From: Planctomycetota bacterium
GTDB taxonomy: Bacteria > Planctomycetota > SZUA-567 > H5-PLA8
Assembly: GCA_035628505.1 (NCBI GenBank)
Contig: DASPJR010000158.1
Location: 20,183-84,182 of the forward strand
Reading direction: 5' to 3'
Length of the DNA: 64,000 nt
Of the stretch, positions 4,318 to 57,423 are shown piece by piece. The notes below the pieces were generated by a model. It saw only the letters and a program-made list of their open reading frames with translations. It searched no databases and was not told the DNA's origin. How positions within the stretch are numbered: the stretch's first letter is position 1; every line of letters starts with the position of its first letter. The translations under genes were made by a program, and so were the position numbers.

Positions 4318-5529
4318 ATGGCACTGCGAATCTATCTCTCGCCCGATGCCTTCAGCGGAACCAAATTCGCGTCTTCCGAGACGCTTCGCCAGAAAAAGGA
4401 TTGCATAATAAACCAATGGCTCGTGACCGTGCGCCACAGAGTTCGTGCAGCATCTTTTTACGACGATAACGTGATTATCGATTCTTTGCCTGAATACCTG
4501 GACGAGCTTGCGGTTTTGCTGTCGCCATCTAAAGAAAAGCATGTTGAGGTCGCCTTGTCGACCGTGCGAACCTCCCGCGAACATGCCCGTCAGCGCACAA
4601 CTCTCGCGCATTACACCCTGGAAGACGTGCTGCTCGAACACGATATTCTCCAGGATTTGATTCTCCGGGAGACCAACCCGGAGGACAGCCTTACGGTTGC
4701 CGAAGTTATTTCGAAAGGTGTTCGCGACGCCGCGGTCGAGTTCATGCATCAGCAACTCGCCAAAAAGGAGGCGTTGCTGAACGAAAATCATCGCGTCATT
4801 GATGCACTCCAGAAGGAGCGTGAACTGCGCGAACAATTCGTCGCGGCGCTGACGCACGACCTGCGCCAGCCCTTATCGTCTGCAAGAGTAAGCGCGCAGC
4901 TTCTGCAGCGCGACCCGGACGGGCCGTCGCGGACAACACTGATAGCGCGAACTCTGGAAAGCCTCAATCGCATCGAACGCATGGTCGGCGATCTACTCGA
5001 CGCCACTCAGATTCGGGCCGGGCACAAACTCTCGCTTGTGATCAGCGAGTGCGACCTGGCGAAGATCTGCCAGAGCGTTACTGGCGAAGTGGCAACCAGC
5101 GCGGGAGACCGTTTCGTGTGCAAATTCCCAGAAGGAACAATCCGTGGCTTCTGGGACGAAGCCAACGTCAGCCGCGCTCTGAGCAATCTTCTTTCTAATG
5201 CGGTGAAGTACGGCGATCCCGCTGAAAAGGTCGAAATCACCTTTTTCAAAAAGAATGACTACGTTCACGTTGCCGTCAGCAATCGTGGATCTCCCTTAAG
5301 TGCTGCCGAACAGCGCATGATTTTCATGCCCTACTATCGAGCCAATTCAGCCCGTCACACTGGAAAAAAGGGCTGGGGGCTTGGCTTGACACTGGTCAAG
5401 GGGATCGCTGAAGCGCATGGCGGTGATGTTTCTGTCAGCAGCGACGGCGGCGTCACGACATTCACGTTGATCCTGCCAATCGACGCGCGACAATTTGTTG
5501 AAAGTACTTCTTCTGTCCGCACGGAATAG
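4318..5529 (+). CDS. Sensor histidine kinase (HisKA + HATPase_c) with RsbRD_N-like N-terminal domain
   Basis: H-box LTHDLRQPL, N-box NLLSNAVKY, G-boxes GWGLGLTLV and AHGG; soluble N-terminus. Confidence 0.9.
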   Translation: MALRIYLSPDAFSGTKFASSETLRQKKDCIINQWLVTVRHRVRAASFYDDNVIIDSLPEYLDELAVLLSPSKEKHVEVALSTVRTSREHARQRTTLAHYTLEDVLLEHDILQDLILRETNPEDSLTVAEVISKGVRDAAVEFMHQQLAKKEALLNENHRVIDALQKERELREQFVAALTHDLRQPLSSARVSAQLLQRDPDGPSRTTLIARTLESLNRIERMVGDLLDATQIRAGHKLSLVISECDLAKICQSVTGEVATSAGDRFVCKFPEGTIRGFWDEANVSRALSNLLSNAVKYGDPAEKVEITFFKKNDYVHVAVSNRGSPLSAAEQRMIFMPYYRANSARHTGKKGWGLGLTLVKGIAEAHGGDVSVSSDGGVTTFTLILPIDARQFVESTSSVRTE

Positions 5530-5717
5530 CGGCAGAATTCAGCCTCGTGTCCGGTTTTCGGACTCCAGGATCACTCCATTTCGAAAAAACGGCCCGGGTC
5601 ATAAGCGCGGCTTGTTTAATTTTGAAAATCCGCTCAGGAGACTGTGAATACAGGCCGCCGGCTTGCTAATTCAGATGCCAACGGGCCCGAAGGCCCGCGG
5701 ACTGGGATTTACATGGC

Positions 5718-6089
5718 ATGATGCAGAATAAACCTGCACGTCGCGAACTCTACGCGGTCCATCAGCGTGGAAGTTGTGTGTGGCAGGTGAAGCGATCAGG
5801 CAGGCCGATCAGCTATCACCGCTGCAAGTTCGATGCGATTAACTTTGCAATGGCGCATTCGAACGCGAGAGCAGTGATCTTAGTAGTGCCAGAAGCCGAG
5901 GAAGGAGAAATGATGAGACGACGACAAGCGCGACGAGCACGACAAGCCGCGCAGGTGCACGCGGAGGTGGATCGCAAGGAACGTGAACACGAAGCTGCGA
6001 TCAGCCTGCCGGCGGCGGAGTCGAATGAACCCGTGGAGAAGAATCTTGTGAAAGCATCCGCGGACGAAGTGGCGCCTCGGCCCGAGTAA
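5718..6089 (+). CDS. Hypothetical protein (weak DUF2188-like N-terminus)
   Basis: 123-aa ORF; YAVHQRG..WQVKRSG...H..K.DAI.FA resembles DUF2188. Confidence 0.45.
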   Translation: MMQNKPARRELYAVHQRGSCVWQVKRSGRPISYHRCKFDAINFAMAHSNARAVILVVPEAEEGEMMRRRQARRARQAAQVHAEVDRKEREHEAAISLPAAESNEPVEKNLVKASADEVAPRPE

Positions 6090-45449: not shown

Positions 45450-46352
45450 TCAGCCGTTTCCGCCTTCGTCCATGCGGCGGGCGCCTTCCATCAGCAACTG
45501 CGTGGTTGGGGCGTTCATTTGCGCTTCAAGTTCAATCTCGCTCTGCAGGAAGGTGAATGAACCGGCGTTCCAACGGAGCGCAAGATAAACGGCCTCTTCC
45601 CCCTGCCGGCATTCTTCTGGCACCTGCGGGCCCGACACCGTCGCAACTATCACGCGGCCTTTGCGCAGGAAGAAGCGGCCCGATGCGTCTTGCGTGCGAA
45701 GCGAAAGCTCGCCGCTCTTTTTTTCCATATCAAACATCATCAGCAGCGACGAGAGGCTCAGCTGCGAGAGCAGGCCGTGTACCGATGCGGCCGGCGGCGG
45801 CGGAGGAGGAGCAACATCGCTGGCCTTGGGCAGGCGCGCGCTGGAACGCGGCACCAGGACAGCATGCTCGCCCGACGCGAAATGGTCAAACTTGCCGTCT
45901 CCCAGATACTTCGCGGCCATCGCAGCGGCCTTGCGCGCGACCAGCGGCAAATTCGCGGCGCTATAGCTCCAGACCGAGTTGGGGCGTTCCGACATACGGC
46001 CGATCAGGTCAATCATGCTTTCACCGCCGGGTGCGGGTTCAATCCGCGGCAGGATCACCGATTCGGACGTCGCATCGCGAACGAAAAACAGCGCGGGTGT
46101 TGTGCCGATCACCGCATCGAGCTTCGCCACGAGGCTCTCCGCGAGAAATGTGTTCACAACGAAAATAGAAGGCGTGATCCCACCCGATTTAAGCGCGCCG
46201 AGAACGTCTTGCACTTCCTGCAGAGAACGCCCGGATGGCAGCGGAAATACGTTTTTCTTCAGCAGTTCCAGCATGATTGCGCGGCAGACGCAGAAACGCA
46301 GGCCATGCTGCGCATCCATAGCTTCGATGAAAAAAGGAATGCCGCCCATCAT
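45450..46352 (-). CDS. DUF4388 domain-containing protein
   Basis: C-terminal GLLSQLSLSSLLMMFDMEKKSGEL...G.FFLRKGRVI.A...GEEAVY.ALRW..GSF.F...LLMEGARRMDE; start uncertain. Confidence 0.8.
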   Translation of the reverse strand: MMGGIPFFIEAMDAQHGLRFCVCRAIMLELLKKNVFPLPSGRSLQEVQDVLGALKSGGITPSIFVVNTFLAESLVAKLDAVIGTTPALFFVRDATSESVILPRIEPAPGGESMIDLIGRMSERPNSVWSYSAANLPLVARKAAAMAAKYLGDGKFDHFASGEHAVLVPRSSARLPKASDVAPPPPPPAASVHGLLSQLSLSSLLMMFDMEKKSGELSLRTQDASGRFFLRKGRVIVATVSGPQVPEECRQGEEAVYLALRWNAGSFTFLQSEIELEAQMNAPTTQLLMEGARRMDEGGNG

Positions 46353-46903
46353 TCAATGCCCAGAATCGTGATTTTGCCGTCTTTGGCCAGAACTTTGACA
46401 GTGTACTTGCCATAGGCAAATTTCTGCCAGGCGCCGCCAGCGGGAACAAACGTGATCTGCACATTCAGTATGCGCGGCACCTCATCGAGCTTGTGCCCGC
46501 GCAATTTTCCGAAGAGCTCATTGAACAGTTCATCTTTGTTCCGCGCTTTGATGACCGGCTGCGTTGGCAATGTGGGCTGCGGCGGCGCGGCGACAATCAT
46601 CCGCGTCGATGGACGCGGTCCCGTGGTATTCGTGGCGACGGGAGCCAGCTCGACCTTGATGTCAGTGACGTACTGCTGCATGAGCTCGGTATAGAGCTGG
46701 AAGGTTTCGACTTCCGGGCGCGCGTTGTAAATGGTGAGCGGGATTTTCAGTAAATTGGGGCCGGCTTTGAGCGTCATGCCAAGCTCGGTGGTGCCGTCAT
46801 TGGTCGTAACGTACAGATCAGCTGTTAAGTTTAACTGCCCATGGCGCTTGCACCATTCGAGTGCATCCGGACGTTCGCCGTTTGTGAAAGACAATGCAGG
46901 CAC
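46349..46903 (-). CDS. Hypothetical protein
   Basis: 184-aa ORF, GAGG RBS, stop overlaps the next start. Confidence 0.6.
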   Translation of the reverse strand: MPALSFTNGERPDALEWCKRHGQLNLTADLYVTTNDGTTELGMTLKAGPNLLKIPLTIYNARPEVETFQLYTELMQQYVTDIKVELAPVATNTTGPRPSTRMIVAAPPQPTLPTQPVIKARNKDELFNELFGKLRGHKLDEVPRILNVQITFVPAGGAWQKFAYGKYTVKVLAKDGKITILGIE

Positions 46904-48792: not shown

Positions 48793-49268
48793 TGCGAGGG
48801 TTCCTCAAAAAAGTTCGAGGAATAGGTATCGGGGCTCGGCGGAAGATCGTCAACGGCAAATCGGTACGCTGCAGGGACGCGTATGGCCGAACAGATCCAG
48901 TCTTACAACGACTCGCCGATTTTCCGCTCACCGATTTCCGCGACGTTCATCGAGACCATTCTGGAGTACTGAAAAAAGCTTGAGAAGTTCAGCGTCAAGC
49001 CGGACTGAGCAGTTATTGAAATAACACTGCTCTCTTGAATTCCATTTCTTCCCATCGGCGCAATTCGCTGCGGAACCAAAGCGGACAGTCGGACTGAGTT
49101 TTCGGCTCTTGATCGTCAATCAGGCAAACAGCCATGCCGATGCGTTTCAAGCTGGACCGTTTTACCCGCACTTTGTCCTTCGAAGCTTTCTGCAACACGC
49201 TGGTCAAGTGCTTGCTGAAGCGTTTAACGCAGTTTGTGTAGTACATATCAAACAAAGTGGAGGAAGGT

Positions 49269-49520
49269 ATGAAGAGCCGCTTCAATATTGTCAAGCTCGA
49301 AGAGCGCATCGCTCCCGCACTGCTGTTCCCTGAGTTCTGCCCGCCTGGCCTGGAGAAGAAGGCCGGTTCAACGACGTACACCGGACCGGTTGAAGTTCAG
49401 GTCGATCCGATCTGCGGTTGTGTGAAGTACACCTCGACTGCCGCGGACAACTCGACGTCCGCCGGTGGCTTCGAGAACATCATCGTCATTACCCAGGGCG
49501 GCGGCGGCAAAGTCGCCTAA
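49269..49520 (+). CDS. 83-aa putative precursor peptide with LEPRxLL-like leader (KLEERIAP)
   Basis: Strong GGAGG RBS; MKSRFNIVKLEERIAP followed by a Cys/Thr/Ser/Gly-rich core; upstream of an RRE-like peptidase gene. Confidence 0.8.
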   Translation: MKSRFNIVKLEERIAPALLFPEFCPPGLEKKAGSTTYTGPVEVQVDPICGCVKYTSTAADNSTSAGGFENIIVITQGGGGKVA

Positions 49521-49538
49521 AGCTACACCTGCTGTTCT

Positions 49539-49580
49539 GCAGCGAGGGATGTCTCCCCCATCCCTCGCTGCTTTATCTCA
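49539..49580 (+). terminator. 13-bp stem-loop after the peptide gene (terminator, attenuator or mRNA stabiliser)
   Basis: GCAGCGAGGGATG-TCTCCCC-CATCCCTCGCTGC followed by TTTATCTCAATTTC. Confidence 0.75.
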
Positions 49581-49625
49581 ATTTCAATTTTCCAATTACT
49601 CCGCGAGCGTGTTCCGGGATCCGCT

Positions 49626-52061
49626 GTGACCTCGATGCTTTCATCATCCGAGACTGCGTCGCCACCGGTATCCCGGCGGCACGACCTGATCATTCGTCCA
49701 GTGGGCGAGAGCGGCGAGTGCGTCGTCAAGGATCCCGCGAGCGCCAGTTATTACCAGCTCGGCGCAGAAGAAGCGTTTCTGCTGAGCGCGCTCGATGGAA
49801 CCCGAAACGGCACGCTCATCTGCGATTCCTATCAGCAGCGCTTTAACAAGGCGCTGACCGAGTCGGAGCTCCAGGAATTTATTGATTACGCCCGCGCCGT
49901 TGGCTTCGTTGGACCGCTGAAACAGGCACCGGATGGATCGTCGCAGGCTCAGGCTGAGCCGGCTCAGCCGCAAAACAGTCTTAACAGCCGTCAGAGCATT
50001 CTTTACTGGCGGATGCGTTTATTCAGTCCTGACGCATTGCTGAACCGGCTCGAGCCTGGGCTGCGATTTCTCTTTACGCCCGCGCTGGTGATGTTCCTCA
50101 CTGCAGCGGGTCTTTTCTCAGCAGGCATCGTCTGGTTCAACCGTGCTGAGCTCATTTCACAGTTTGCCGATGCTCTTCGTCCTCGGACGCTCTTCCTGGC
50201 CTGGCTGTGCATCGCCAGTGTGACGCTGATACATGAATTTGCTCATGGTCTTGCGTGCAAGCGATTCGGCGGCAGGGTTTCAGAAATCGGCTTCCTGCTG
50301 ATGTTCCTGATGCCCTGTTTTTACTGCAATGTGTCCGACGCGTGGCTGTTTCGCGAGCGCTACAAGCGCGTCTGGGTCACACTGGCCGGGCCCTGCTGCG
50401 ACGTGCTGCTCTGGTCGGCGGCAGTGCTGATCTGGCGCGTGTCGATGCTCGACAGCCTTCTTAATTACCTGGCCTGGATCACATTGTCCGTGCTGGGCGT
50501 GCGCATTCTGCTGAATTTCAATCCGTTGATGCGGCTGGACGGCTACTACCTGCTGAGCGATTGCGCCGGTGTGACAAATCTGCAGCAGACGTCGTGGGAG
50601 TATGTGCGCGCACATCTGCGCTGGGCGCTGTTTGGATGCCCCTTCCCCGGCCGCCTGCCGCGCTCTACGTTTCTGCTGATCTACGGAACGTTGAGCTGGT
50701 GGTACGCCTTCATAATGCTCGGCACGATTGCTTATTTCTTAACCTGCGCGGCTGCGGCGAAGCTGGGCGTCTTTGGAATTCTCCTGGGCGCCGGATTTGG
50801 TGTGGTTCTGCTGCGCGGAATTTTTCGTGGTTTCTGGACGGAGGAGGCACGCATGAGCCTGGGTATGCGGCGGTTGCTGTTCTGGAGCGCGGTGCTGTGC
50901 AGCATTGTTGCCGCGCTGGTCTTCATCAAGATGGACGACACGGTTACGGCGAACATGCTGATCCGCGCCACGCGTCGCGCTGAAGTGCGTGCGAGCGCCG
51001 CCGGCTTCCTGCGCGAAGTACACGTCAGCGACGGAGACCGTGTCAATGCAAAGGCGCGGATCGCGCGCATCGAAATTCCTGATCTGCAGAGCCGCTTGAA
51101 TCAGAAACGGCTTGAAATCGAGGAGCTCGAAGCCCGCCAGCGCCTGCTTTCAGCGGGCGTACGCCAGGAAGAGATTAAAGAAGCGCGCGAACGCATCAAG
51201 CGCTCAGAAGCGTGGCTTGAGGTCGCAAAGGCCGCACTGAAGCAGCGCAAGCTGGCGCTGGATGCCGAGCTCACCGAGCTCGACTGGCGCATCCGGCAGT
51301 TCAAGATTGAAGTTCAAGGCGCCGAGGAAACGTTCACGCAGACGACGGCGCTGCTGGCCAAGGGCGCCATTTCGCAGCAGGAACACAACGACCGCCAGCG
51401 CAAACTGCAGGTTTTGCAGACGCAGCTCGAACAAATTCAGGCGCAGCGCGCGGCACGGCAGGCAGCGGGCACTCAGGAAAAGGAAGATGAAATCGCACGC
51501 CGCGAGCTTGAAGTGAGCGAAGCGCGCGGGCGGCTGGCCCTGCTGCAGGCGGGAACCCGCGTGGAAGAGCTTGAAGCCATCCACGCGCAGATTGCGCGAC
51601 TGAGGGAGGAACACTGTTTCCTCGAAATTCAGCAACAACGGCTGAATGTTGAGTCGCCTGTTGGCGGACTTGTCGCCACGCCGCATCTGGCGCAGAAAAT
51701 CGGCCAGTACGTCCGCGAAGGCGAAGTCATCTGTGAAGTTGAGGACCCGCGCGATCTGAACGCCGAGCTGGTACTCAGCGAGCAGGATGCTTCACTGGTC
51801 GGGCGGGAGCGCATGGTCAGCCTTTATCCGCGCGTGATGCCGATGGTGGCGCTCAGCGCCAGCGTCGAACGCCTGGCAACGCGCGTCGTTCCCGGCCAGG
51901 CGCAGGGCTCGCTCACGGTGTACTGCCAGCTTAAAGAGTTCGCTCCCGAACTGCGTCCCGGGATGACTGGCCACGCGCGGATCCATTGCGGCCGCAAGCC
52001 CCTGGGTCAGATTCTGTACGAGCGCCTGGTCCGTTCAATCCGCACCGAGTTCTGGTGGTGA
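49626..52061 (+). CDS. PqqD/RRE-like + M50 metalloprotease + HlyD-type adaptor fusion protein
   Basis: N-terminus VVKDP.S.SYYQLG.EE.FLL..LDG...F; HEFAH zinc motif, AGP and NFNPLMRLDGYY; then a TM helix, lipoyl-like VRAS.AGFL.EV.V.DGD.V, a long coiled coil, VESPVGG and a beta-barrel LRPGMTG.A.I. Confidence 0.88.
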   Translation: MTSMLSSSETASPPVSRRHDLIIRPVGESGECVVKDPASASYYQLGAEEAFLLSALDGTRNGTLICDSYQQRFNKALTESELQEFIDYARAVGFVGPLKQAPDGSSQAQAEPAQPQNSLNSRQSILYWRMRLFSPDALLNRLEPGLRFLFTPALVMFLTAAGLFSAGIVWFNRAELISQFADALRPRTLFLAWLCIASVTLIHEFAHGLACKRFGGRVSEIGFLLMFLMPCFYCNVSDAWLFRERYKRVWVTLAGPCCDVLLWSAAVLIWRVSMLDSLLNYLAWITLSVLGVRILLNFNPLMRLDGYYLLSDCAGVTNLQQTSWEYVRAHLRWALFGCPFPGRLPRSTFLLIYGTLSWWYAFIMLGTIAYFLTCAAAAKLGVFGILLGAGFGVVLLRGIFRGFWTEEARMSLGMRRLLFWSAVLCSIVAALVFIKMDDTVTANMLIRATRRAEVRASAAGFLREVHVSDGDRVNAKARIARIEIPDLQSRLNQKRLEIEELEARQRLLSAGVRQEEIKEARERIKRSEAWLEVAKAALKQRKLALDAELTELDWRIRQFKIEVQGAEETFTQTTALLAKGAISQQEHNDRQRKLQVLQTQLEQIQAQRAARQAAGTQEKEDEIARRELEVSEARGRLALLQAGTRVEELEAIHAQIARLREEHCFLEIQQQRLNVESPVGGLVATPHLAQKIGQYVREGEVICEVEDPRDLNAELVLSEQDASLVGRERMVSLYPRVMPMVALSASVERLATRVVPGQAQGSLTVYCQLKEFAPELRPGMTGHARIHCGRKPLGQILYERLVRSIRTEFWW

Positions 52062-53409: not shown

Positions 53410-54528
53410 GTGACAACGGAGGAAAAACTCCACGGCCCTGGTTCTACTTTTTGCCTGCCGGGAACAGGTGAATTCGGTCCGGCCCTGAAAGAAAGCGATG
53501 AAGGCAGTTCGCTACCCTTCGTCTCTGTCATCCTGCCAACGTGGTGCGAAGAAAAGTACATCGACAACTGCCTGCGATCCGTTTTGCACCAGAATTACCC
53601 GATTTTCCGCATGGAAATTCTCGTGGTGGATGGCATGAGCACCGATCGTACCCGCGATATTGTGCGCACGGTCGCTGCCGAGTTCCCGCAGGTGCGCCTG
53701 CTCGATAACCCCGAGCGTCTGCAGTCCTATGGACTCAATCGCGCCATCCAGGCGTCGCGCGGCACCATCATCATCCGCATGGACGCACATAGCGAATACG
53801 GCCCCGATTACATCCGCACCTGCGTTGATACCCTGCGCCGCACCGGCGCCGATAACGTCGGCGGACCGCAGCGCCCGAAGGCCCGGACGTTTTTTCAGCG
53901 CATGATCGCGCACGCGTTGGGCAGCCGGCTTGGAACAGGCGGCGCGCCCTGCCGCCACGAGGGCCAGGACGGCTACGTGGATACGGTGTTTCCCGGCGCG
54001 TTCCGGCGCCAGGCGCTGCAGCGCGTGGGCCTCTTCGATCCGGGCGCGATCACCAACGAAGATGCCGAGATCAACCAGCGCATCATCGCCAGCGGCGGCA
54101 AAGTCTATTTGAGTTCGCAGATCGAATGCTACTACTACCCGCGTGAGAGCGTGCGCTCGCTGGCGATTCAGTATTTCCGCTACGGCCGCGGCCGCGCGCG
54201 AACGGTGCTCAAGCATGGACAGGTTCTGCGGCTCAGTTCGTTCCTGCCCTTCCTCTTCTTCTCGTCGATTCTTGGAATGGCGGCGCTCAGCACGCTGCTG
54301 CCCCAGGCTATCATGGGTGCGCTTGCGCTGGGGGGATTCTATCTTTCGTGCCTGATCGCCGAGAGCGTGCGGCTGGCGCTCAAGACTGAATGGCGGTGTG
54401 CGTTCGTGCTTCCGGTTGTGTTCGCCACGATGCACTTCTCGCACGCAGTGGGGGTCGGCTGGGGCGTGCTTTATTACAGCCATAATCCCGACTGGACGCA
54501 CACGTCTCCGCCGCTGCTGCAGCAGTAA
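53410..54528 (+). CDS. GT2 family glycosyltransferase (ExoA-like) with C-terminal TMs
   Basis: VSVILP, VVDGMSTD.T, RMDAH, NEDAE.N.R and QYFRYG.GR. Confidence 0.9.
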   Translation: MTTEEKLHGPGSTFCLPGTGEFGPALKESDEGSSLPFVSVILPTWCEEKYIDNCLRSVLHQNYPIFRMEILVVDGMSTDRTRDIVRTVAAEFPQVRLLDNPERLQSYGLNRAIQASRGTIIIRMDAHSEYGPDYIRTCVDTLRRTGADNVGGPQRPKARTFFQRMIAHALGSRLGTGGAPCRHEGQDGYVDTVFPGAFRRQALQRVGLFDPGAITNEDAEINQRIIASGGKVYLSSQIECYYYPRESVRSLAIQYFRYGRGRARTVLKHGQVLRLSSFLPFLFFSSILGMAALSTLLPQAIMGALALGGFYLSCLIAESVRLALKTEWRCAFVLPVVFATMHFSHAVGVGWGVLYYSHNPDWTHTSPPLLQQ

Positions 54529-54529
54529 T

Positions 54530-54663
54530 GAGTCATGAGTCTTGAGTCTTGAGTCTTGAGTCTTGAGTCGGGAGTCGGGAGTCGAGAGTCGGGAGTCCTA
54601 TAGCGAGGGCTCAAGTCATAATGCTGGCAGACTCCAGACTCCAGACTCAAGACTCCAGACTAC
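54530..54663. repeat. Inverted heptamer arrays: (GAGTCNN)x10, ~29-bp spacer, (AGACTCC)x5
   Basis: 54530-54599 has ten GAGTC(TT/GG) units; 54629-54663 has five reverse-complement units. Confidence 0.92.
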
Positions 54664-54735
54664 TCTGGCACGTGATTCGATAAACAAGCAGCGGCCTGTG
54701 TGGTAGCAACCTCAACGATTGGACGCCTTCACCTT

Positions 54736-56025
54736 ATGACCAGCCCACTAACCAGCCAGCATCCCTCGCAGCGCAAGATCCGCAGTTCGGTTGCGCGGCG
54801 GGAGCGGCTGAAGATCCTGATGACGCGCGTGCGCCTGCTGTATCCGCTCAATACCGGCGGGAAGATCCGCACCGCGAAAATGATCGAGCAGCTCAGCAAG
54901 GACAACGATCTGACGCTGGTCACCTACCGTTACCCCGAAGACACCGACGAGGATGTCGCACAGACGGCCAAGCTGTGCAAGCATCTTGTAACCGTCCCCT
55001 GCAAAGAGACGCCGAAATACACACCCCGCTTTTATTATGAACTGGGCCGCAACCTCTTTGAGCGGCTGCCTTATGTGGTCAGCAAGTATGCCAGCCGCGA
55101 GCTCGCTGAGACCGTTGCCGGCGTCTACAAGGCCCAGAACCCTGATCTGGTCATGGTCGATTTCCTGCAGGCCTGTGAATCGATCCGGCGCCTGAAAAAC
55201 GTTCCCTTCGTGCTGTTCCAGCACAATGTCGAGGCCGCTATTTTTGAGCAGCTGGCCGCCCGCGCTAATTCCTTCTTCGAGCGGCTTTACCTGAATCTGC
55301 AGGCGCGCCGCATGCGCCGCTACGAAAAGAGAATGTGCCGCAGGGCCCACACGGTTATCGCCGTCTCGGACGTGGACAGCCGCGCCTTTGAAACGCATTA
55401 CGGCGCACGCAACTGCGAAGTCGTCCCGACCGGCGTGGACACCAATTTCTTCCTGCCCTCCTCTTCACTGCGGCGTCTGAACAACCTCGTCTTCACCGGC
55501 TCAATGGACTGGCTGGCCAACCAGGACGCCATGCAGTATTTCGTGCGCGATATCTTCCCGCTGATCCGGCAGGAAATCCCGAACGTGATGCTCAGCATCG
55601 TCGGCCGCAATCCGCCGCCCGATATCCAGAAACTGGGCGAGCAGCCCGGCATCGCGGTCACCGGCACCGTGGACGACATCCGCCCGTACGTTCATGGCGC
55701 CAAGGTGTACATCGTCCCGCTGCGCATCGGCAGCGGCACGCGGCTGAAGCTGCTCGAAGCGATGTCCATGGGCAAAGCGATCGTCAGCACGACCATCGGC
55801 GCCGAGGGGCTGCCGGTGGAGCACGGTAAGAACATCGTCCTGGCCGATGATGCCAACGCGTTTGCGCAGGAAGTCGTGGGTCTGCTGCGCGATACGGAGC
55901 GGCGGGAGATGCTCGAAGAGAACGCGCGCACACTGGTTGAGCGCAGTTATTCCTGGGAGCACGTCGGCCGCGTCTTCAATGACATCTGCCACCGCGCGGC
56001 CAGGAGCATGCAGAGCCGCCGGTGA
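54736..56025 (+). CDS. GT4 family glycosyltransferase
   Basis: KIL....LYP...GGKIR, FTGSMDW.AN.DA, VPLRIGSGTRLKLLEAM..G.AIVST..GAEG. Confidence 0.9.
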   Translation: MTSPLTSQHPSQRKIRSSVARRERLKILMTRVRLLYPLNTGGKIRTAKMIEQLSKDNDLTLVTYRYPEDTDEDVAQTAKLCKHLVTVPCKETPKYTPRFYYELGRNLFERLPYVVSKYASRELAETVAGVYKAQNPDLVMVDFLQACESIRRLKNVPFVLFQHNVEAAIFEQLAARANSFFERLYLNLQARRMRRYEKRMCRRAHTVIAVSDVDSRAFETHYGARNCEVVPTGVDTNFFLPSSSLRRLNNLVFTGSMDWLANQDAMQYFVRDIFPLIRQEIPNVMLSIVGRNPPPDIQKLGEQPGIAVTGTVDDIRPYVHGAKVYIVPLRIGSGTRLKLLEAMSMGKAIVSTTIGAEGLPVEHGKNIVLADDANAFAQEVVGLLRDTERREMLEENARTLVERSYSWEHVGRVFNDICHRAARSMQSRR

Positions 56026-56109
56026 TATTGCCGGAGGTATGCTGACCAAAGCGGAGGCGGGCCAGGCCGCCCCCGCCGAATCATCTTCATTCTTCAACGA
56101 GGGGAACGC

Positions 56110-57423
56110 ATGAATATTGCCGTCTGTGGTCTGGGGTATGTCGGTTCTGTCACCGCCGTCTGCATGGCGCGCGCAGGACACAATGTCATCGGCGTCGATG
56201 TCAACGAAGAGAAGGCGCGCATGATGCGCGAAGGCGTGCCGCCGGTGATCGAGGAAGGGCTTGCGCCGCTGCTGCAGGAGATGGTTCTCGAAGGACGCCT
56301 GGCCGCCACGACGGATTTGAAACTCGCGCTGCAGCAGGCTGATGTAACGCTCGTCTGCGTCGGCACGCCCAGCCGCACGAACGGCAGCCTCGACACAGCC
56401 GCGCTTGAACGTGTCTGCGAGGACCTCGGCCGCGCGCTGCGCCACAGCCCCAAGCCGCACACGATCATCATGCGCAGCACGGTGCTGCCCGGCACGTGCC
56501 GCAATCTGCTGATTCCCATCATCGAAGAGACCGCCGGCAAGGCGTGCGATGACAGCCTGGGCGTCGTCTACAATCCTGAATTCATGCGCGAAGGCACGTC
56601 GGTCAAGGATTTCTACACGCCGCCGTTCACGATCATCGGCCGCGACAGCGAACATCACGGCTCGGTTGCCGCCGCGCTCTATGCCAGCATCGAAGCACCT
56701 CTGGAACGGACCAGCATCGAAGCCTCGGAGATGCTCAAGTACGCCTGCAATGCGTTCCACGCGATGAAGATCAGCTTCGCCAACGAAATCGGCGTGTTCG
56801 CTTCGGAACACGGCATCGATGGACGCGAGGTAATGCGCATGCTGTGCCTCGACAAGAAGCTGAACATCTCGCCCAGTTACCTTAAACCGGGCTTTGCCTT
56901 CGGTGGTTCGTGTCTGCCCAAGGATCTGCGCGCGCTACTTTACCGCGCCAAGCAGGCAGACCTGCGCCTCCCGGTCCTCGACGCGATCCTGCAGAGCAAC
57001 ACACAGCACCTGAGACGCGGTATTGAACTGATCAAGCAGACCGGCAAGACGAAGATCGGCATGCTCGGCCTGACCTTCAAGAGCGGCACCGACGACCTGC
57101 GCGAAAGCCCGTATGTCGATCTCGCTGAAACGCTGCTCGGCAAAGGCTACAAGCTCCGCATCCACGACGACAATGTGGAGACCGCACGGCTGGTTGGCGC
57201 AAACGCGGCTTACATCAACAATCATCTGCCTCACCTGACCAGCCTGCTGGGCTCGATTGAGGATGTGATGAATCACGCCGAAGTGATCGTTGTCTGCAAC
57301 GGCGATCCGCAGTACGCCACGGCCATCCGCCACCGCCGCTCGGGCCAGCAGGTCATCGATCTGATCGGCGTGCCGCAGGTGGACAACACACGCTCCCGCC
57401 GCGTGGTGGGCATCGCGTGGTAG
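56110..57423 (+). CDS. Nucleotide-sugar dehydrogenase (UDP-glucose / GDP-mannose 6-dehydrogenase family)
   Basis: GLGYVG, CVGTP, STVLPGT, NPEFMREG, KYACN, GGSCLPKD and DDLRESP. Confidence 0.93.
   Translation: MNIAVCGLGYVGSVTAVCMARAGHNVIGVDVNEEKARMMREGVPPVIEEGLAPLLQEMVLEGRLAATTDLKLALQQADVTLVCVGTPSRTNGSLDTAALERVCEDLGRALRHSPKPHTIIMRSTVLPGTCRNLLIPIIEETAGKACDDSLGVVYNPEFMREGTSVKDFYTPPFTIIGRDSEHHGSVAAALYASIEAPLERTSIEASEMLKYACNAFHAMKISFANEIGVFASEHGIDGREVMRMLCLDKKLNISPSYLKPGFAFGGSCLPKDLRALLYRAKQADLRLPVLDAILQSNTQHLRRGIELIKQTGKTKIGMLGLTFKSGTDDLRESPYVDLAETLLGKGYKLRIHDDNVETARLVGANAAYINNHLPHLTSLLGSIEDVMNHAEVIVVCNGDPQYATAIRHRRSGQQVIDLIGVPQVDNTRSRRVVGIAW

Follow-up and report, generated by a model that had tools for sequence, protein, structure and literature searches.

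A LEERIAP-type leader peptide and an RRE–M50 protease–adaptor fusion protein as candidate two-gene system for peptide maturation and secretion in Planctomycetota and related phyla

Organization of the locus

The window, the 64,000-nucleotide stretch of planctomycete DNA that was analysed in this study, contains a cassette of two genes on the same strand, which encode a small precursor peptide and a large protein combining an RRE domain, an intramembrane metalloprotease and a periplasmic adaptor in a single polypeptide (Table 1). The elements described in an earlier note on this DNA, including the ribosome binding site, the 67-residue core, the stem-loop, the reading frame of 811 residues, the zinc site and the HlyD-type adaptor, were all recovered in their places.

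Table 1. Features of the precursor–fusion cassette in the window.
Feature	Position	Strand	Remarks
Shine-Dalgarno sequence GGAGGA	49259..49264	+	4 nt 5' of the peptide ATG; GGAGGA at equivalent position in locus L001
Precursor peptide gene	49269..49520	+	ATG at 49269, stop included, 83 aa
Leader region MKSRFNIVKLEERIAP (residues 1-16)	49269..49316	+	Predicted cleavage after Pro16
Predicted core (ALLFPEFCPPGLEKK...GGGGKVA), 67 aa	49317..49517	+	3 Cys, pI 4.7
Terminator-like hairpin and T-rich tail	49539..49581	+	Between precursor and processing genes; z = -5.3 vs shuffles
RRE–M50–periplasmic adaptor fusion gene	49626..52061	+	811 aa from GTG; 808 aa from ATG at 49635, the start in the public protein collection
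RRE (PqqD-like) domain, residues ~15-95	49668..49910	+	AlphaFold2 and Foldseek; PF05402 in 31/32 homologues
M50 intramembrane metalloprotease domain, residues ~135-435	50028..50930	+	NF041824; about seven predicted transmembrane helices (seven or eight hydrophobic helices by hydropathy and in the model)
HEFAH zinc-binding/catalytic motif, residues 203-207	50232..50246	+	H203, E204, H207 invariant in 32 homologues
NFNPLMRLDG second M50 motif, residues 297-306	50514..50543	+	Third zinc ligand Asp305
HlyD/EmrA-type periplasmic adaptor, residues 436-811	50931..52058	+	Lipoyl-like domain, long alpha-hairpin, beta-barrel

The predicted core, with an average mass of 6764.6 Da if unmodified, is rich in serine and threonine besides its cysteines. 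That the small open reading frame is a genuine gene is shown by its conserved homologue in locus L001, which harbors the closest homologue of the fusion protein (48% identity) and contains a gene of 74 residues at the equivalent position. Residues 1-15 of the L001 peptide equal the window leader except for a single deleted serine, and the codons of both leaders are distinguished by four synonymous changes and no others, which rules out a spurious origin of the 83-residue reading frame. Overall, the two peptides share 39 identical residues, and the sequences CPPGL[ED]KK and GCGC are common to their cores. A word-based search with the 83-residue peptide returned only the query itself, and a scan of the locus for sigma-70-type promoters, which is uninformative for this phylum, found no site.

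The stem-loop of the intergenic hairpin (49539-49571) consists of 13 base pairs, nine of them G-C, and a loop of 7 nt, and it is followed by TTTATCTC. Hairpins with z < -2 are found after 44% of 77 related precursor genes, and the element in the window probably ensures that more precursor is made than processing protein.

Architecture of the fusion protein

The N-terminus of the fusion protein, which the earlier note had described as PqqD-like, shows the fold of an RRE in an AlphaFold2 model, with pLDDT values of about 84-93 over the fold. Three β-strands (residues 22-26, 31-36 and 41-45) are followed by three α-helices (47-55, 62-73 and 79-92), in the β3-α3 order of the winged helix that defines these domains. 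In a Foldseek search with the domain modelled alone, the six best matches were RREs in complex with leader peptides (5v1u, 5v1v and 6jx3), with an E-value of 9e-4 for the complex of TbiB1 and its leader (5v1u). Five of these six superimpose with TM-scores of 0.72-0.77 and rmsds of 2.5-3.0 Å, whereas the rmsd of the top-ranked chain 5v1u_B is 6.1 Å. The top PDB matches comprise TbiB1 and lasso B1 proteins with bound leader, followed by TigE, SuiB, CteB, SkfB and PqqD. The Pfam model PqqD (PF05402) does not match the window protein at E ≤ 1 but detects 31 of 32 aligned homologues, the best at 3.5e-12. The domain of the fusion protein may bind the leader of the precursor, as suggested indirectly by the genomic coupling of leader and fusion gene and by the precedent of the daptides.

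The subsequent region, which is predicted to be membrane-embedded, displays the hallmarks of M50 proteases, with HExxH and NxxPxxxxDG motifs located in separate transmembrane helices of a multi-pass core. Within the second motif, N297, P300, L301, D305 and G306 are invariant among the 32 homologues. Residues 27-401 match the model NF041824 (daptide_HExxH) with 198.6 bits (E 1.7e-58, compared to a cut-off of 300) in an alignment that covers positions 13-370 of 379 and hence nearly the full model. Judged from its sequence, the RRE–M50 half is a homologue of the daptide protease, not an equivalog. The general Pfam model of M50 proteases (PF02163) scores 25.5 bits, under its gathering cut-off of 27.2, and matches 29 of the 32 homologues at E ≤ 0.01; proteases of the window type form a divergent subfamily.

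The C-terminal region carries the domains of a periplasmic adaptor of the HlyD family. Residues 598-780 are matched by the Pfam models HlyD_D23 (37.0 bits, cut-off 30) and HlyD_3 (36.5 bits, cut-off 22.2), and RND_mfp models also match in this half of the protein. The closest structural neighbour of the adaptor is EmrA (4tko, 5.4e-20), followed by MacA, AcrA and MexA with E-values up to 1e-9, and Foldseek, when queried with the full-length model, returned nothing but adaptor proteins. A phmmer search of PDB sequences with residues 1-420 gave nothing meaningful. A genome scan with the fusion protein as single query had no match, whereas a rescan with an alignment of 32 sequences identified 596 relatives. 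Many homologues bear the JGI label 'putative peptide zinc metalloprotease protein', a name taken from the M50 protease EpeP/YydH.

A leader family coupled to the fusion gene

The peptides encoded in related loci share a leader of 13 residues with the pattern [KR][FL]x[ILV]xxLE[ED]RI[AV]P. In a logo of 80 peptides, [KR] is found in 91%, [FL] in 97% and [ILV] in 94% of the sequences, followed by L-E-[ED]-R-I-[AV]-P, and conservation ends at the proline, where hypervariable cores begin. Cleavage is predicted to occur after Pro16 of the window peptide because conservation ceases at this position and because the equivalent proline of the daptide precursor MpaA constitutes residue -1.

The earlier note had named an RRE-like N-domain and the co-occurrence of such fusions with short L(E/D)ERIAP genes as checks of its proposal, and both came out in its favour. 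Of the related loci, 63 include 1 kb or more of DNA upstream of the fusion gene, and about 57 of these (~90%) contain one to three small genes with the leader. A precursor is not recognisable in about six loci whose upstream DNA is ample. A six-frame translation of 81 loci, 1.68 million residues in total, contains the pattern 73 times. In 69 cases it precedes the fusion gene on the coding strand, and no occurrence appears spurious.

It was the surroundings of the fusion gene that first revealed this peptide family; a leader profile, built from slices of 43-46 residues, then retrieved at least 2,943 peptide clusters, all of them unnamed or annotated as 'hypothetical protein'. More than 10,000 cluster representatives were found for the RRE–M50 protein, and cassettes of these two genes are very common among Planctomycetota and related phyla. 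Leader-bearing products contain between 45 and 245 residues, with some LEERIAP-bearing proteins reaching 235-245 residues, and in one case the leader is fused to a radical SAM protein. Many of the related cores are 100-230 residues long, of low complexity and rich in glycine, serine and lysine, and as such unlike classical antimicrobial peptides. No NCBIfam model matches the window peptide or eight related peptides (E ≤ 10), and the collection holds no model for the precursor or for the fusion as such. Neither a LEERIAP leader nor an RRE–M50–HlyD fusion is described in the literature searched, though published accounts of the system may exist outside it.

The earlier note had further connected this leader to the LEPRxLL motif. 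Its resemblance to the LEPR-XLL domain proteins of planctomycetes and cyanobacteria is superficial and consists of an LE-x-R sequence near the N-terminus after a basic/hydrophobic stretch, whereas the window motif ends in IAP instead of xLL and finds no match in NCBIfam. No protein with a LEPRxLL N-terminus is encoded in the window, and a large neighbouring protein with an N-terminus of the LE.R.(V)LL type is found in only two of 81 loci, which looks no more frequent than expected by chance from a rough estimate for planctomycete genomes and amounts to no enrichment beside the fusion gene. NCBIfam has no model that matches these candidates either. With two adjacent candidates in 81 loci and none in the window, we see no support for the proposed link and have rejected these cases as evidence.

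Genomic neighbourhood

Genes surrounding the cassette in the window code for ThuA, 3-hydroxyisobutyrate dehydrogenase, an esterase, glycosyltransferases and UDP-glucose dehydrogenase, with nothing RiPP-like within about 6 kb on either side. The segment contains neither an ABC ATPase-permease nor a C39 peptidase, and the statement of the earlier note that ABC ATPase and tailoring enzyme are lacking is correct for this locus. Neither a TolC-like gene nor a further HlyD-type or fusion gene is present in the 64-kb window.

Among related loci, a TolC-like OEP gene (PF02321) is a frequent neighbour (36 of 78 loci), located directly downstream of the fusion gene in 26 of 61 cases. The adjacent TolC genes are convergent with the fusion gene and are therefore not co-transcribed with it. 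Like the window, most of the closest relatives (L001-L012) contain no TolC-like gene. Walker A and ABC signature motifs coincide in a single reading frame of the 81 loci, an unrelated candidate, and no ABC or other transporter family is conserved among the neighbours.

Most of the 81 loci, including L001, consist of the precursor and the fusion gene only, in some cases joined by the TolC-like gene and a gene for a protein of 160 residues. In a few loci, the leader and the fusion gene adjoin genes encoding LanB/LanC, a class-III aminotransferase (among the relatives in L008 only), a sulfotransferase or a radical SAM protein, which indicates that the RRE–M50–adaptor module serves several peptide chemistries. 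Such neighbours, and the three cysteines and numerous serines and threonines of the window core, would be compatible with an incomplete RiPP pathway, in which modifying enzymes encoded elsewhere act on the core and the fusion protein takes only the last step. We find this quite unlikely in light of the minimal composition of most loci and of the surroundings of the cassette in the window. Given that the neighbourhood lacks genes for tailoring enzymes, we expect the product most likely to be a secreted peptide that is either unmodified or only disulfide-bonded.

A role in signalling was considered as well, where the fusion protein would act as site-2 protease in regulated intramembrane proteolysis and the peptides would be regulators or decoys that are not exported. 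M50 proteases classically cleave anti-sigma factors, and a sigma-70-type gene and kinases are located near the fusion gene in one related locus. Conversely, the peptides have no transmembrane segment, no sigma/anti-sigma pair is conserved, and processing and export are indicated by the fixed leader preceding hypervariable cores, by the RRE, by the adaptor and by the TolC neighbour. Together, these observations render a signalling function highly improbable.

Proposed mechanism

We consider it reasonably probable that the cassette constitutes a two-gene, leader-dependent system for the maturation and secretion of peptides. In such a process, the 83-residue precursor would be synthesized in the cytoplasm, where the RRE at the predicted cytoplasmic N-terminus of the fusion protein would bind the leader (RFNIVKLEERIAP), probably as an added β-strand. 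The adjoining M50 intramembrane zinc protease would then cut right after, or near, Pro16, the 67-residue core would pass the inner membrane at the M50 domain, and the fused HlyD/EmrA-type adaptor would conduct it across the periplasm towards a TolC-like outer-membrane channel, which in this genome would be encoded outside the window. The analysis shows the identities of the domains, the intact catalytic motifs, the conserved leader, its close genomic linkage to the fusion gene, the frequent TolC neighbour and the homology to the daptide RRE-protease; leader binding, the exact site of cleavage, the topology in the membrane, the translocation with its energy source and the biological role of the core are inferred. 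Points that speak against the scheme are the convergent orientation of the adjacent TolC genes and their absence from the window and most of its closest relatives, the scores of the window protein below the curated cut-offs of Pfam M50 and NF041824 and its lack of a Pfam PqqD match, the long, low-complexity cores of many relatives and the loci with ample upstream DNA in which no precursor is recognisable.

An M50 protein would in this scheme take the place of the usual C39-ABC transporter and export may proceed without an ATPase, a reading suggested by the circumstantial evidence of the fused adaptor, the TolC-like neighbour and the missing conserved ABC gene. It is opposed by the fact that periplasmic adaptors normally pair with an energised inner-membrane transporter, none of which is linked to the cassette. 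The fusion protein might accordingly serve as leader peptidase and adaptor only, with an ABC, MFS or RND transporter encoded elsewhere translocating the peptide and supplying the energy. The best structural matches of the adaptor conform with this view, as EmrA is the partner of the MFS pump EmrB and MacA of an ABC pump; to our knowledge, every characterised periplasmic adaptor works with an energised pump of the inner membrane, and daptide clusters encode ABC transporters beside their RRE-protease. Still, we regard a separate transporter as unlikely, since no transporter family is conserved in the 81 loci whereas the TolC-like gene is, since the M50 membrane domain seems to be the inner-membrane partner of the adaptor that is covalently fused to it, and since an exporting role besides cleavage has been suggested for EpeP, likewise an M50 protease.

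Returning to secretion by the cassette itself, a more far-reaching version, which we put forward tentatively and with considerable doubt, holds that the fusion protein would be the complete inner-membrane part of a hitherto unrecognised, ATPase-independent trans-envelope route. Its oligomers would dock on a TolC-like channel, recognise and cut the LEERIAP-type signal and pass out cargo ranging from 20-residue peptides to disordered proteins of 230 residues, with signal and pathway being of general use for secretion in Planctomycetota and neighbouring phyla instead of a RiPP accessory.

The leader defines a very large unannotated peptide family, and the proposed mechanism would offer a function for thousands of genes that are annotated at present as 'HlyD family efflux transporter adaptor' or as 'multidrug efflux pump subunit AcrA'. 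As 13 residues accompanied by a single processing gene, it provides a simple genome-mining handle for secreted peptides in Planctomycetota, Verrucomicrobiota and Acidobacteriota, whose natural products are barely explored, and one leader type serves clusters containing lanthipeptide enzymes, aminotransferases, sulfotransferases or radical SAM proteins. If export indeed needs no ABC ATPase, the system would embody a new coupling of leader removal to passage across the diderm envelope.

Comparison with known systems

The closest known relatives of the cassette are found in daptide clusters, which were identified through a site-2 protease with an RRE at its N-terminus (MpaP/DapP), and whose precursors carry the sequence ELExMEAP directly before the core, with proline as residue -1 and an essential Leu-7 (Ren et al., 2023; PMC10028931). 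Both systems share the order of RRE and M50 domains and the presence of several short precursor genes beside the protease, and the daptide leader E-L-D-P-M-E-A-P aligns in the same register with K-L-E-E-R-I-A-P of the window, with L, E, A and P in common. The 199-bit score of the daptide protease model and the shared leader register identify the module for recognition and cleavage as a relative of the known one. The initial interpretation of the locus, in which the RRE reads the leader, the M50 domain removes it and the adaptor hands on the core, is supported in part, by the RRE fold, the genomic co-occurrence and the daptide precedent, but it is less unprecedented than claimed. At the same time, the window locus shows none of the features that define daptides with respect to protease score, precursor and co-located Dap genes: the protein stays under the cut-off of NF041824 (198.6 vs 300 bits), the precursor ends in alanine (...GGGGKVA) instead of a C-terminal threonine, DapB (DUF-RRE), the oxidoreductase DapC, the aminotransferase DapD, the methyltransferase DapM and the ABC transporter are all missing, and the protease carries a fused periplasmic adaptor of about 375 residues. 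While daptides originate from Actinomycetota or Bacillota, the hosts described here are diderm (Planctomycetota, Verrucomicrobiota and Acidobacteriota), and the principle of an RRE linked to a site-2 protease would extend from monoderm to diderm bacteria. What is new in the present system is the fused adaptor, the presence of a TolC-like gene beside it in 36 of 78 loci and an organization mostly without tailoring enzymes and without a conserved ABC transporter.

EpeP/YydH of the Bacillus subtilis epipeptide system is an intramembrane M50 protease that removes a leader and is thought to also export the peptide. Its partners in this monoderm host are a radical SAM epimerase and an ABC transporter. 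Its model matches the window protein weakly (NF058609, 32 bits vs a cut-off of 225) and only in the protease core (residues 182-315), and EpeP has no adaptor domain.

Systems composed of a C39-ABC transporter, HlyD and TolC, as in the secretion of colicin V by CvaAB-TolC or in NHLP/Nif11 systems, equally combine a conserved leader with hypervariable cores and couple leader removal to export by way of an adaptor and an outer-membrane channel, and the HlyD model of the NHLP system (TIGR03794) matches the window protein weakly. They differ by their C39 domain, ABC ATPase and double-glycine site, none of which is found here, where a zinc-dependent M50 protease, recognition by an RRE and an adaptor covalently fused to the protease are found instead.

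Finally, EmrA, MacA, AcrA and HlyD share the adaptor fold of the C-terminal ~375 residues of the window protein, and TolC-like genes adjoin the fusion gene in its relatives. These known adaptors are separate proteins that are held by a single helix or a lipid anchor and that work with a pump as partner, whereas in the fusion protein the anchor is a complete RRE–M50 protease.

Organization of the cassette in the window

The earlier note had described a small peptide gene, a stem-loop and a single large protease-adaptor protein in this stretch of DNA, and all three elements were located as claimed (see table). The peptide gene is preceded by a GGAGGA ribosome-binding site, read from the window sequence 4 nt 5' of its ATG, and the hairpin behind it is the top terminator-like site of the region, with a folding energy of -28.1 kcal/mol and a z-score of -5.3 relative to shuffled sequences. 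The cassette is flanked by genes encoding a ThuA-like protein, a 3-hydroxyisobutyrate-type dehydrogenase, an AXE1/DLH-type esterase, GT2 and GT4 glycosyltransferases and a UDP-glucose dehydrogenase, and both flanks appear unrelated to it. A second copy of the fusion gene, other HlyD-like genes, TolC-like genes and N-terminal LE.R motifs besides that of the cassette were all looked for and not found in the 64-kb window. The locus is of a minimal type, consisting of precursor and fusion gene without a tailoring enzyme. On its 3' side, the run of GT2, GT4 and UDP-glucose/GDP-mannose dehydrogenase genes (53410-57423, +) is probably a polysaccharide-synthesis locus. At 45450-46903 (-), an ORF of 184 aa without family match shares 4 nt with the DUF4388-domain gene (300 aa) downstream of it, and the two probably form an operon.

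Features of the window cassette, the fusion protein and related loci (L, fetched loci of fusion-gene relatives; P, homologous proteins)
Feature	Location	Strand	Description
Precursor peptide gene	window 49269-49520	+	83 aa, MKSRFNIVKLEERIAP followed by 67 residues
Hairpin	window 49539-49571		13-bp G+C-rich stem, 18 bases 3' of peptide stop, then TTTATCTC
Fusion gene	window 49626 (GTG)-52061	+	811 aa; start in public collection ATG 49635, 808 aa
Beta3-alpha3 domain	fusion residues 22-92		AlphaFold2 model
Disordered linker	fusion residues 99-130		AlphaFold2 model
Membrane-helix bundle	fusion residues 152-433		AlphaFold2 model
Lipoyl, long-hairpin and barrel adaptor	fusion residues 435-811		AlphaFold2 model
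LanB	L006 1548-5841		after three LEERVVP/LEDRIVP-leader precursors
LanB	L069 11052-14404		adjoining fusion gene
LanB and LanC-like	P0022 context		four short ORFs upstream
Class-III aminotransferase-domain protein	L008 3840-5974	+	673 aa; between LEARIAP-leader precursor and fusion gene
Sulfotransferase-domain protein	L030 1310-2536	+	directly 5' of fusion gene, after three leader-bearing ORFs
Radical SAM protein	L069 8674-10350	+	558 aa; just 3' of fusion gene; in-frame N-terminal LEERIAP-type leader (…KPKRFRIVKLEERIAPAAAG…)
LE.R.(V)LL-type large protein	L069 3953-5953	+	…VLELLEDRTVLNS…; beta-helix-like repeats; directly 5' of fusion gene
LE.R.(V)LL-type large protein	L057 8617-11439	-	…DTLETRVLLAAVNL…

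Architecture of the fusion protein

Among NCBIfam models, the fusion protein is best matched by NF041824, the daptide intramembrane metalloprotease (E = 1.7e-58), with a score of 198.6 bits that falls short of the cut-off of 300 bits. The alignment pairs residues 27-401 with positions 13-370 of the 379 positions of the model, while the C-terminal half is matched by NCBIfam HlyD and RND-adaptor models. In Pfam, HlyD_D23 and HlyD_3 exceed their cut-offs and M50 remains slightly below. The protease active site is intact, its motifs HEFAH (203-207) and NFNPLMRLDG (297-306) both being invariant in 32 homologues. Database names given to the protein are 'HlyD family efflux transporter periplasmic adaptor subunit', 'multidrug efflux pump subunit AcrA' and 'putative peptide zinc metalloprotease protein'.

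The full-length AlphaFold2 model (mean pLDDT 80.6) contains an adaptor part for which Foldseek retrieves EmrA, MacA, AcrA and MexA (E 5e-20 to 1e-9). When searched with the separately modelled N-domain (pLDDT 79), the top PDB matches are leader-bound RRE proteins, namely TbiB1 (5v1u, 5v1v) and lasso B1 (6jx3), with TM scores of 0.72-0.77, followed by the RRE domains of TigE, SuiB, CteB and SkfB and then by PqqD itself. The Pfam PqqD domain was detected in 31 of 32 aligned proteins, the window protein being the sole miss. The proposed RRE-like character of the N-domain is borne out by its fold and its structural matches. Counting helices in the model predicts seven membrane passes, in which case the RRE would be cytoplasmic and the adaptor periplasmic.

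A large family of leader peptides coupled to the fusion gene

A word-based search with the window peptide returned no relatives. The homologue most similar to the fusion protein is P0002 (48% identity). At the equivalent position in its locus, a 74-aa gene encodes MKRFNIVKLEERIAPTIV...CPPGLDKK...GCGC, with a leader that is the same as in the window save for one deleted Ser and with 39 identical residues overall. The leader codons of the two genes show four differences, all synonymous. The window peptide gene is real and a member of a very large family.

Scanning one genome per species with an alignment of 32 proteins identified 596 relatives, and 80 loci were fetched. Most of these belong to Planctomycetota (Gemmataceae, Pirellulales, Planctomycetaceae and Isosphaeraceae, with the cultured carriers Adhaeretor mobilis HG15A2, Novipirellula rosea and Novipirellula sp. 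SH528 among them), and others are found in Verrucomicrobiota, Acidobacteriota, Gemmatimonas and one Limnocylindrales bin. In 1.68 million six-frame residues of related loci, the leader pattern [KR][FL]x[ILVAM]xxLEx[RK][IVL][AVG]P occurs 73 times, 69 of these on the coding strand 5' of the fusion gene. The other four matches, three on the coding strand downstream of or inside the fusion-gene region and one divergent, are all plausible precursors. If near-variants such as LEEKIAP are counted, one to three leader-bearing genes per locus are present in about 57 of the 63 loci with at least 1 kb of upstream DNA, and the co-occurrence of fusion genes with short LEERIAP-type ORFs, as envisaged in the earlier note, amounts to a near-obligate genomic coupling. 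Locus L018 contains a divergent pair of homologous precursors (4933-5181, -; 5630-5860, +) 5' of one fusion gene. Hairpins with z < -2 are found 3' of the stop codon in 44% of 77 precursors.

In a logo of 80 peptides, positions outside the search pattern are also preserved ([KR] 91%, [FL] 97%, [ILV] 94%), and conservation breaks off sharply past the Pro. A profile of the leader region matches at least 2,943 protein clusters at E <= 10, the best of which are all 46-80 aa long, devoid of Pfam domains and unnamed or annotated as 'hypothetical protein'. With the RRE-M50 half as query, 10,858 cluster representatives were obtained at E <= 1e-3 and 1,250 at E <= 1e-30, with fusion length (>=680 aa) in 101 of the best 150 matches. 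No description of the LEERIAP-type leader or the RRE-M50-HlyD fusion was found in a full-text literature search, nor did NCBIfam release 20 yield a model for either.

Neighbours of the fusion gene and types of cores

Clustering of ORFs over related loci revealed just two widespread companions of the fusion gene. The first, a TolC-like outer-membrane efflux protein (PF02321, E = 3.7e-26), is present in 36 of 78 loci. Where downstream DNA suffices (61 loci), its gene directly follows the fusion gene in 26 cases, in convergent orientation. The second is a protein of about 160 aa, whose gene separates precursor and fusion gene in 27 loci; most of these have long low-complexity Gly/Ser/Lys-rich cores. 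The protein has no match that we could find in Pfam or NCBIfam, and may be an additional component of this sub-type. A HRLIDGHHRASRC-like motif is carried by this companion, for example in L047 (5422-5913, +). A third neighbour cluster was discarded as spurious, being composed of antisense ORFs over Gly/Ser/Lys low-complexity cores. We found no ABC transporter family conserved across the related loci.

Tailoring enzymes beside or between precursor and fusion gene are confined to a minority of loci. The loci with LanB-type dehydratase genes appear to be class I lanthipeptide-like clusters in which the leader and protease module is employed, and L030 is a possible sulfated-peptide cluster. The aminotransferase of L008 is reminiscent of daptide DapD; the precursor of this locus ends in ...DGCC, not in Thr, and a DUF255/thioredoxin protein is encoded downstream. 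In L069, the fusion gene is apparently frameshifted into two ORFs, and the leader-radical SAM ORF could reflect a genuine fusion of leader and enzyme, an overlooked stop codon or faulty assembly. The presence of several kinds of tailoring enzymes beside the module indicates that leader and fusion gene are common to different peptide chemistries.

The cores are hypervariable, yet recurring types exist, which are either Asn/Gly/Pro-rich (such as GNPGNNNPPLNNTNNPGNEGTGG), His-containing (such as NPAGHAPPGHN), Cys-rich or composed of long low-complexity tracts of Gly, Ser and Lys that can reach 230 aa. Low-complexity 'cores' of 70-230 aa (…SKSKSKSK…) are found in L044, L047, L048, L080, L039, L040 and L028. 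Near-identical cores, including GNPGNNNPPLNNTNNPGNEGTGG and NGGGNTPxGxANGVP..NPAGHAPPGHN, follow the leader across phyla (Gemmataceae and Vicinamibacterales; L002, L073, P0270, P0273, P0320 and others), which suggests that these peptides have conserved functions rather than being fast-evolving antibiotics.

Relation to LEPRxLL proteins

The earlier note had also raised a link to the LEPRxLL motif, to which the LEERIAP leader bears a loose likeness only. No family model connecting the two was found in NCBIfam, and large neighbours with an LE.R.(V)LL-type N-terminus were encountered in just two loci, L069, which is without a small upstream precursor, and L057. Since proteins of this type are common in planctomycete genomes, we estimate these two cases to be no more than chance, leaving the extension to LEPRxLL unsupported. 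The signal is not limited to short peptides, since products with LEERIAP N-termini reach 245 aa and, in one case, the motif shares a reading frame with a radical SAM enzyme.

Proposed mechanism and comparison with known systems

In the daptide precursor MpaA, the leader motif is numbered E-8 L-7 D-6 P-5 M-4 E-3 (A-2) P-1 and thus ends at the cleavage site, with Leu-7 and Met-4 being essential to RRE-dependent processing (PMC10028931). The window leader reads K-8 L-7 E-6 E-5 R-4 I-3 A-2 P-1, placing Leu, an acidic residue, Ala and Pro in register. This shared register and the score of 199 bits against the daptide protease model indicate a homologous recognition-and-cleavage module and point to Pro16 as the likeliest site. 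Cleavage after this residue is our best guess from the sequences compared, and the abrupt end of conservation agrees with it.

In the mechanism that we propose, the RRE would bind the leader and the M50 domain would cut after Pro16, the core would cross the inner membrane next to or via the M50 domain, and the adaptor would join to a TolC-like channel, while the hairpin would keep the ratio of precursor to processing protein high. Translocation is the weakest of these steps because its energy source is not evident, and in the main rival explanation it is performed by an unlinked ABC, MFS or RND pump. As a reading of recognition and cleavage, the earlier proposal appears largely right, and its ABC-independent export is plausible but unproven.

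Compared to the daptide system, the window cassette lacks a precursor with C-terminal Thr, DapBCDM and an ABC transporter, and its protease scores below the equivalog cut-off, which together rule out a daptide system proper. M50 proteases are also part of the epipeptide pathway, where EpeP is thought to cleave and export, and of pearlin pathways (PMC10885120). The cassette is a variant of the RRE-site-2-protease leader peptidase, which is distinguished by its fused periplasmic adaptor, a TolC partner, a new leader family, its diderm hosts and a very large unannotated membership.
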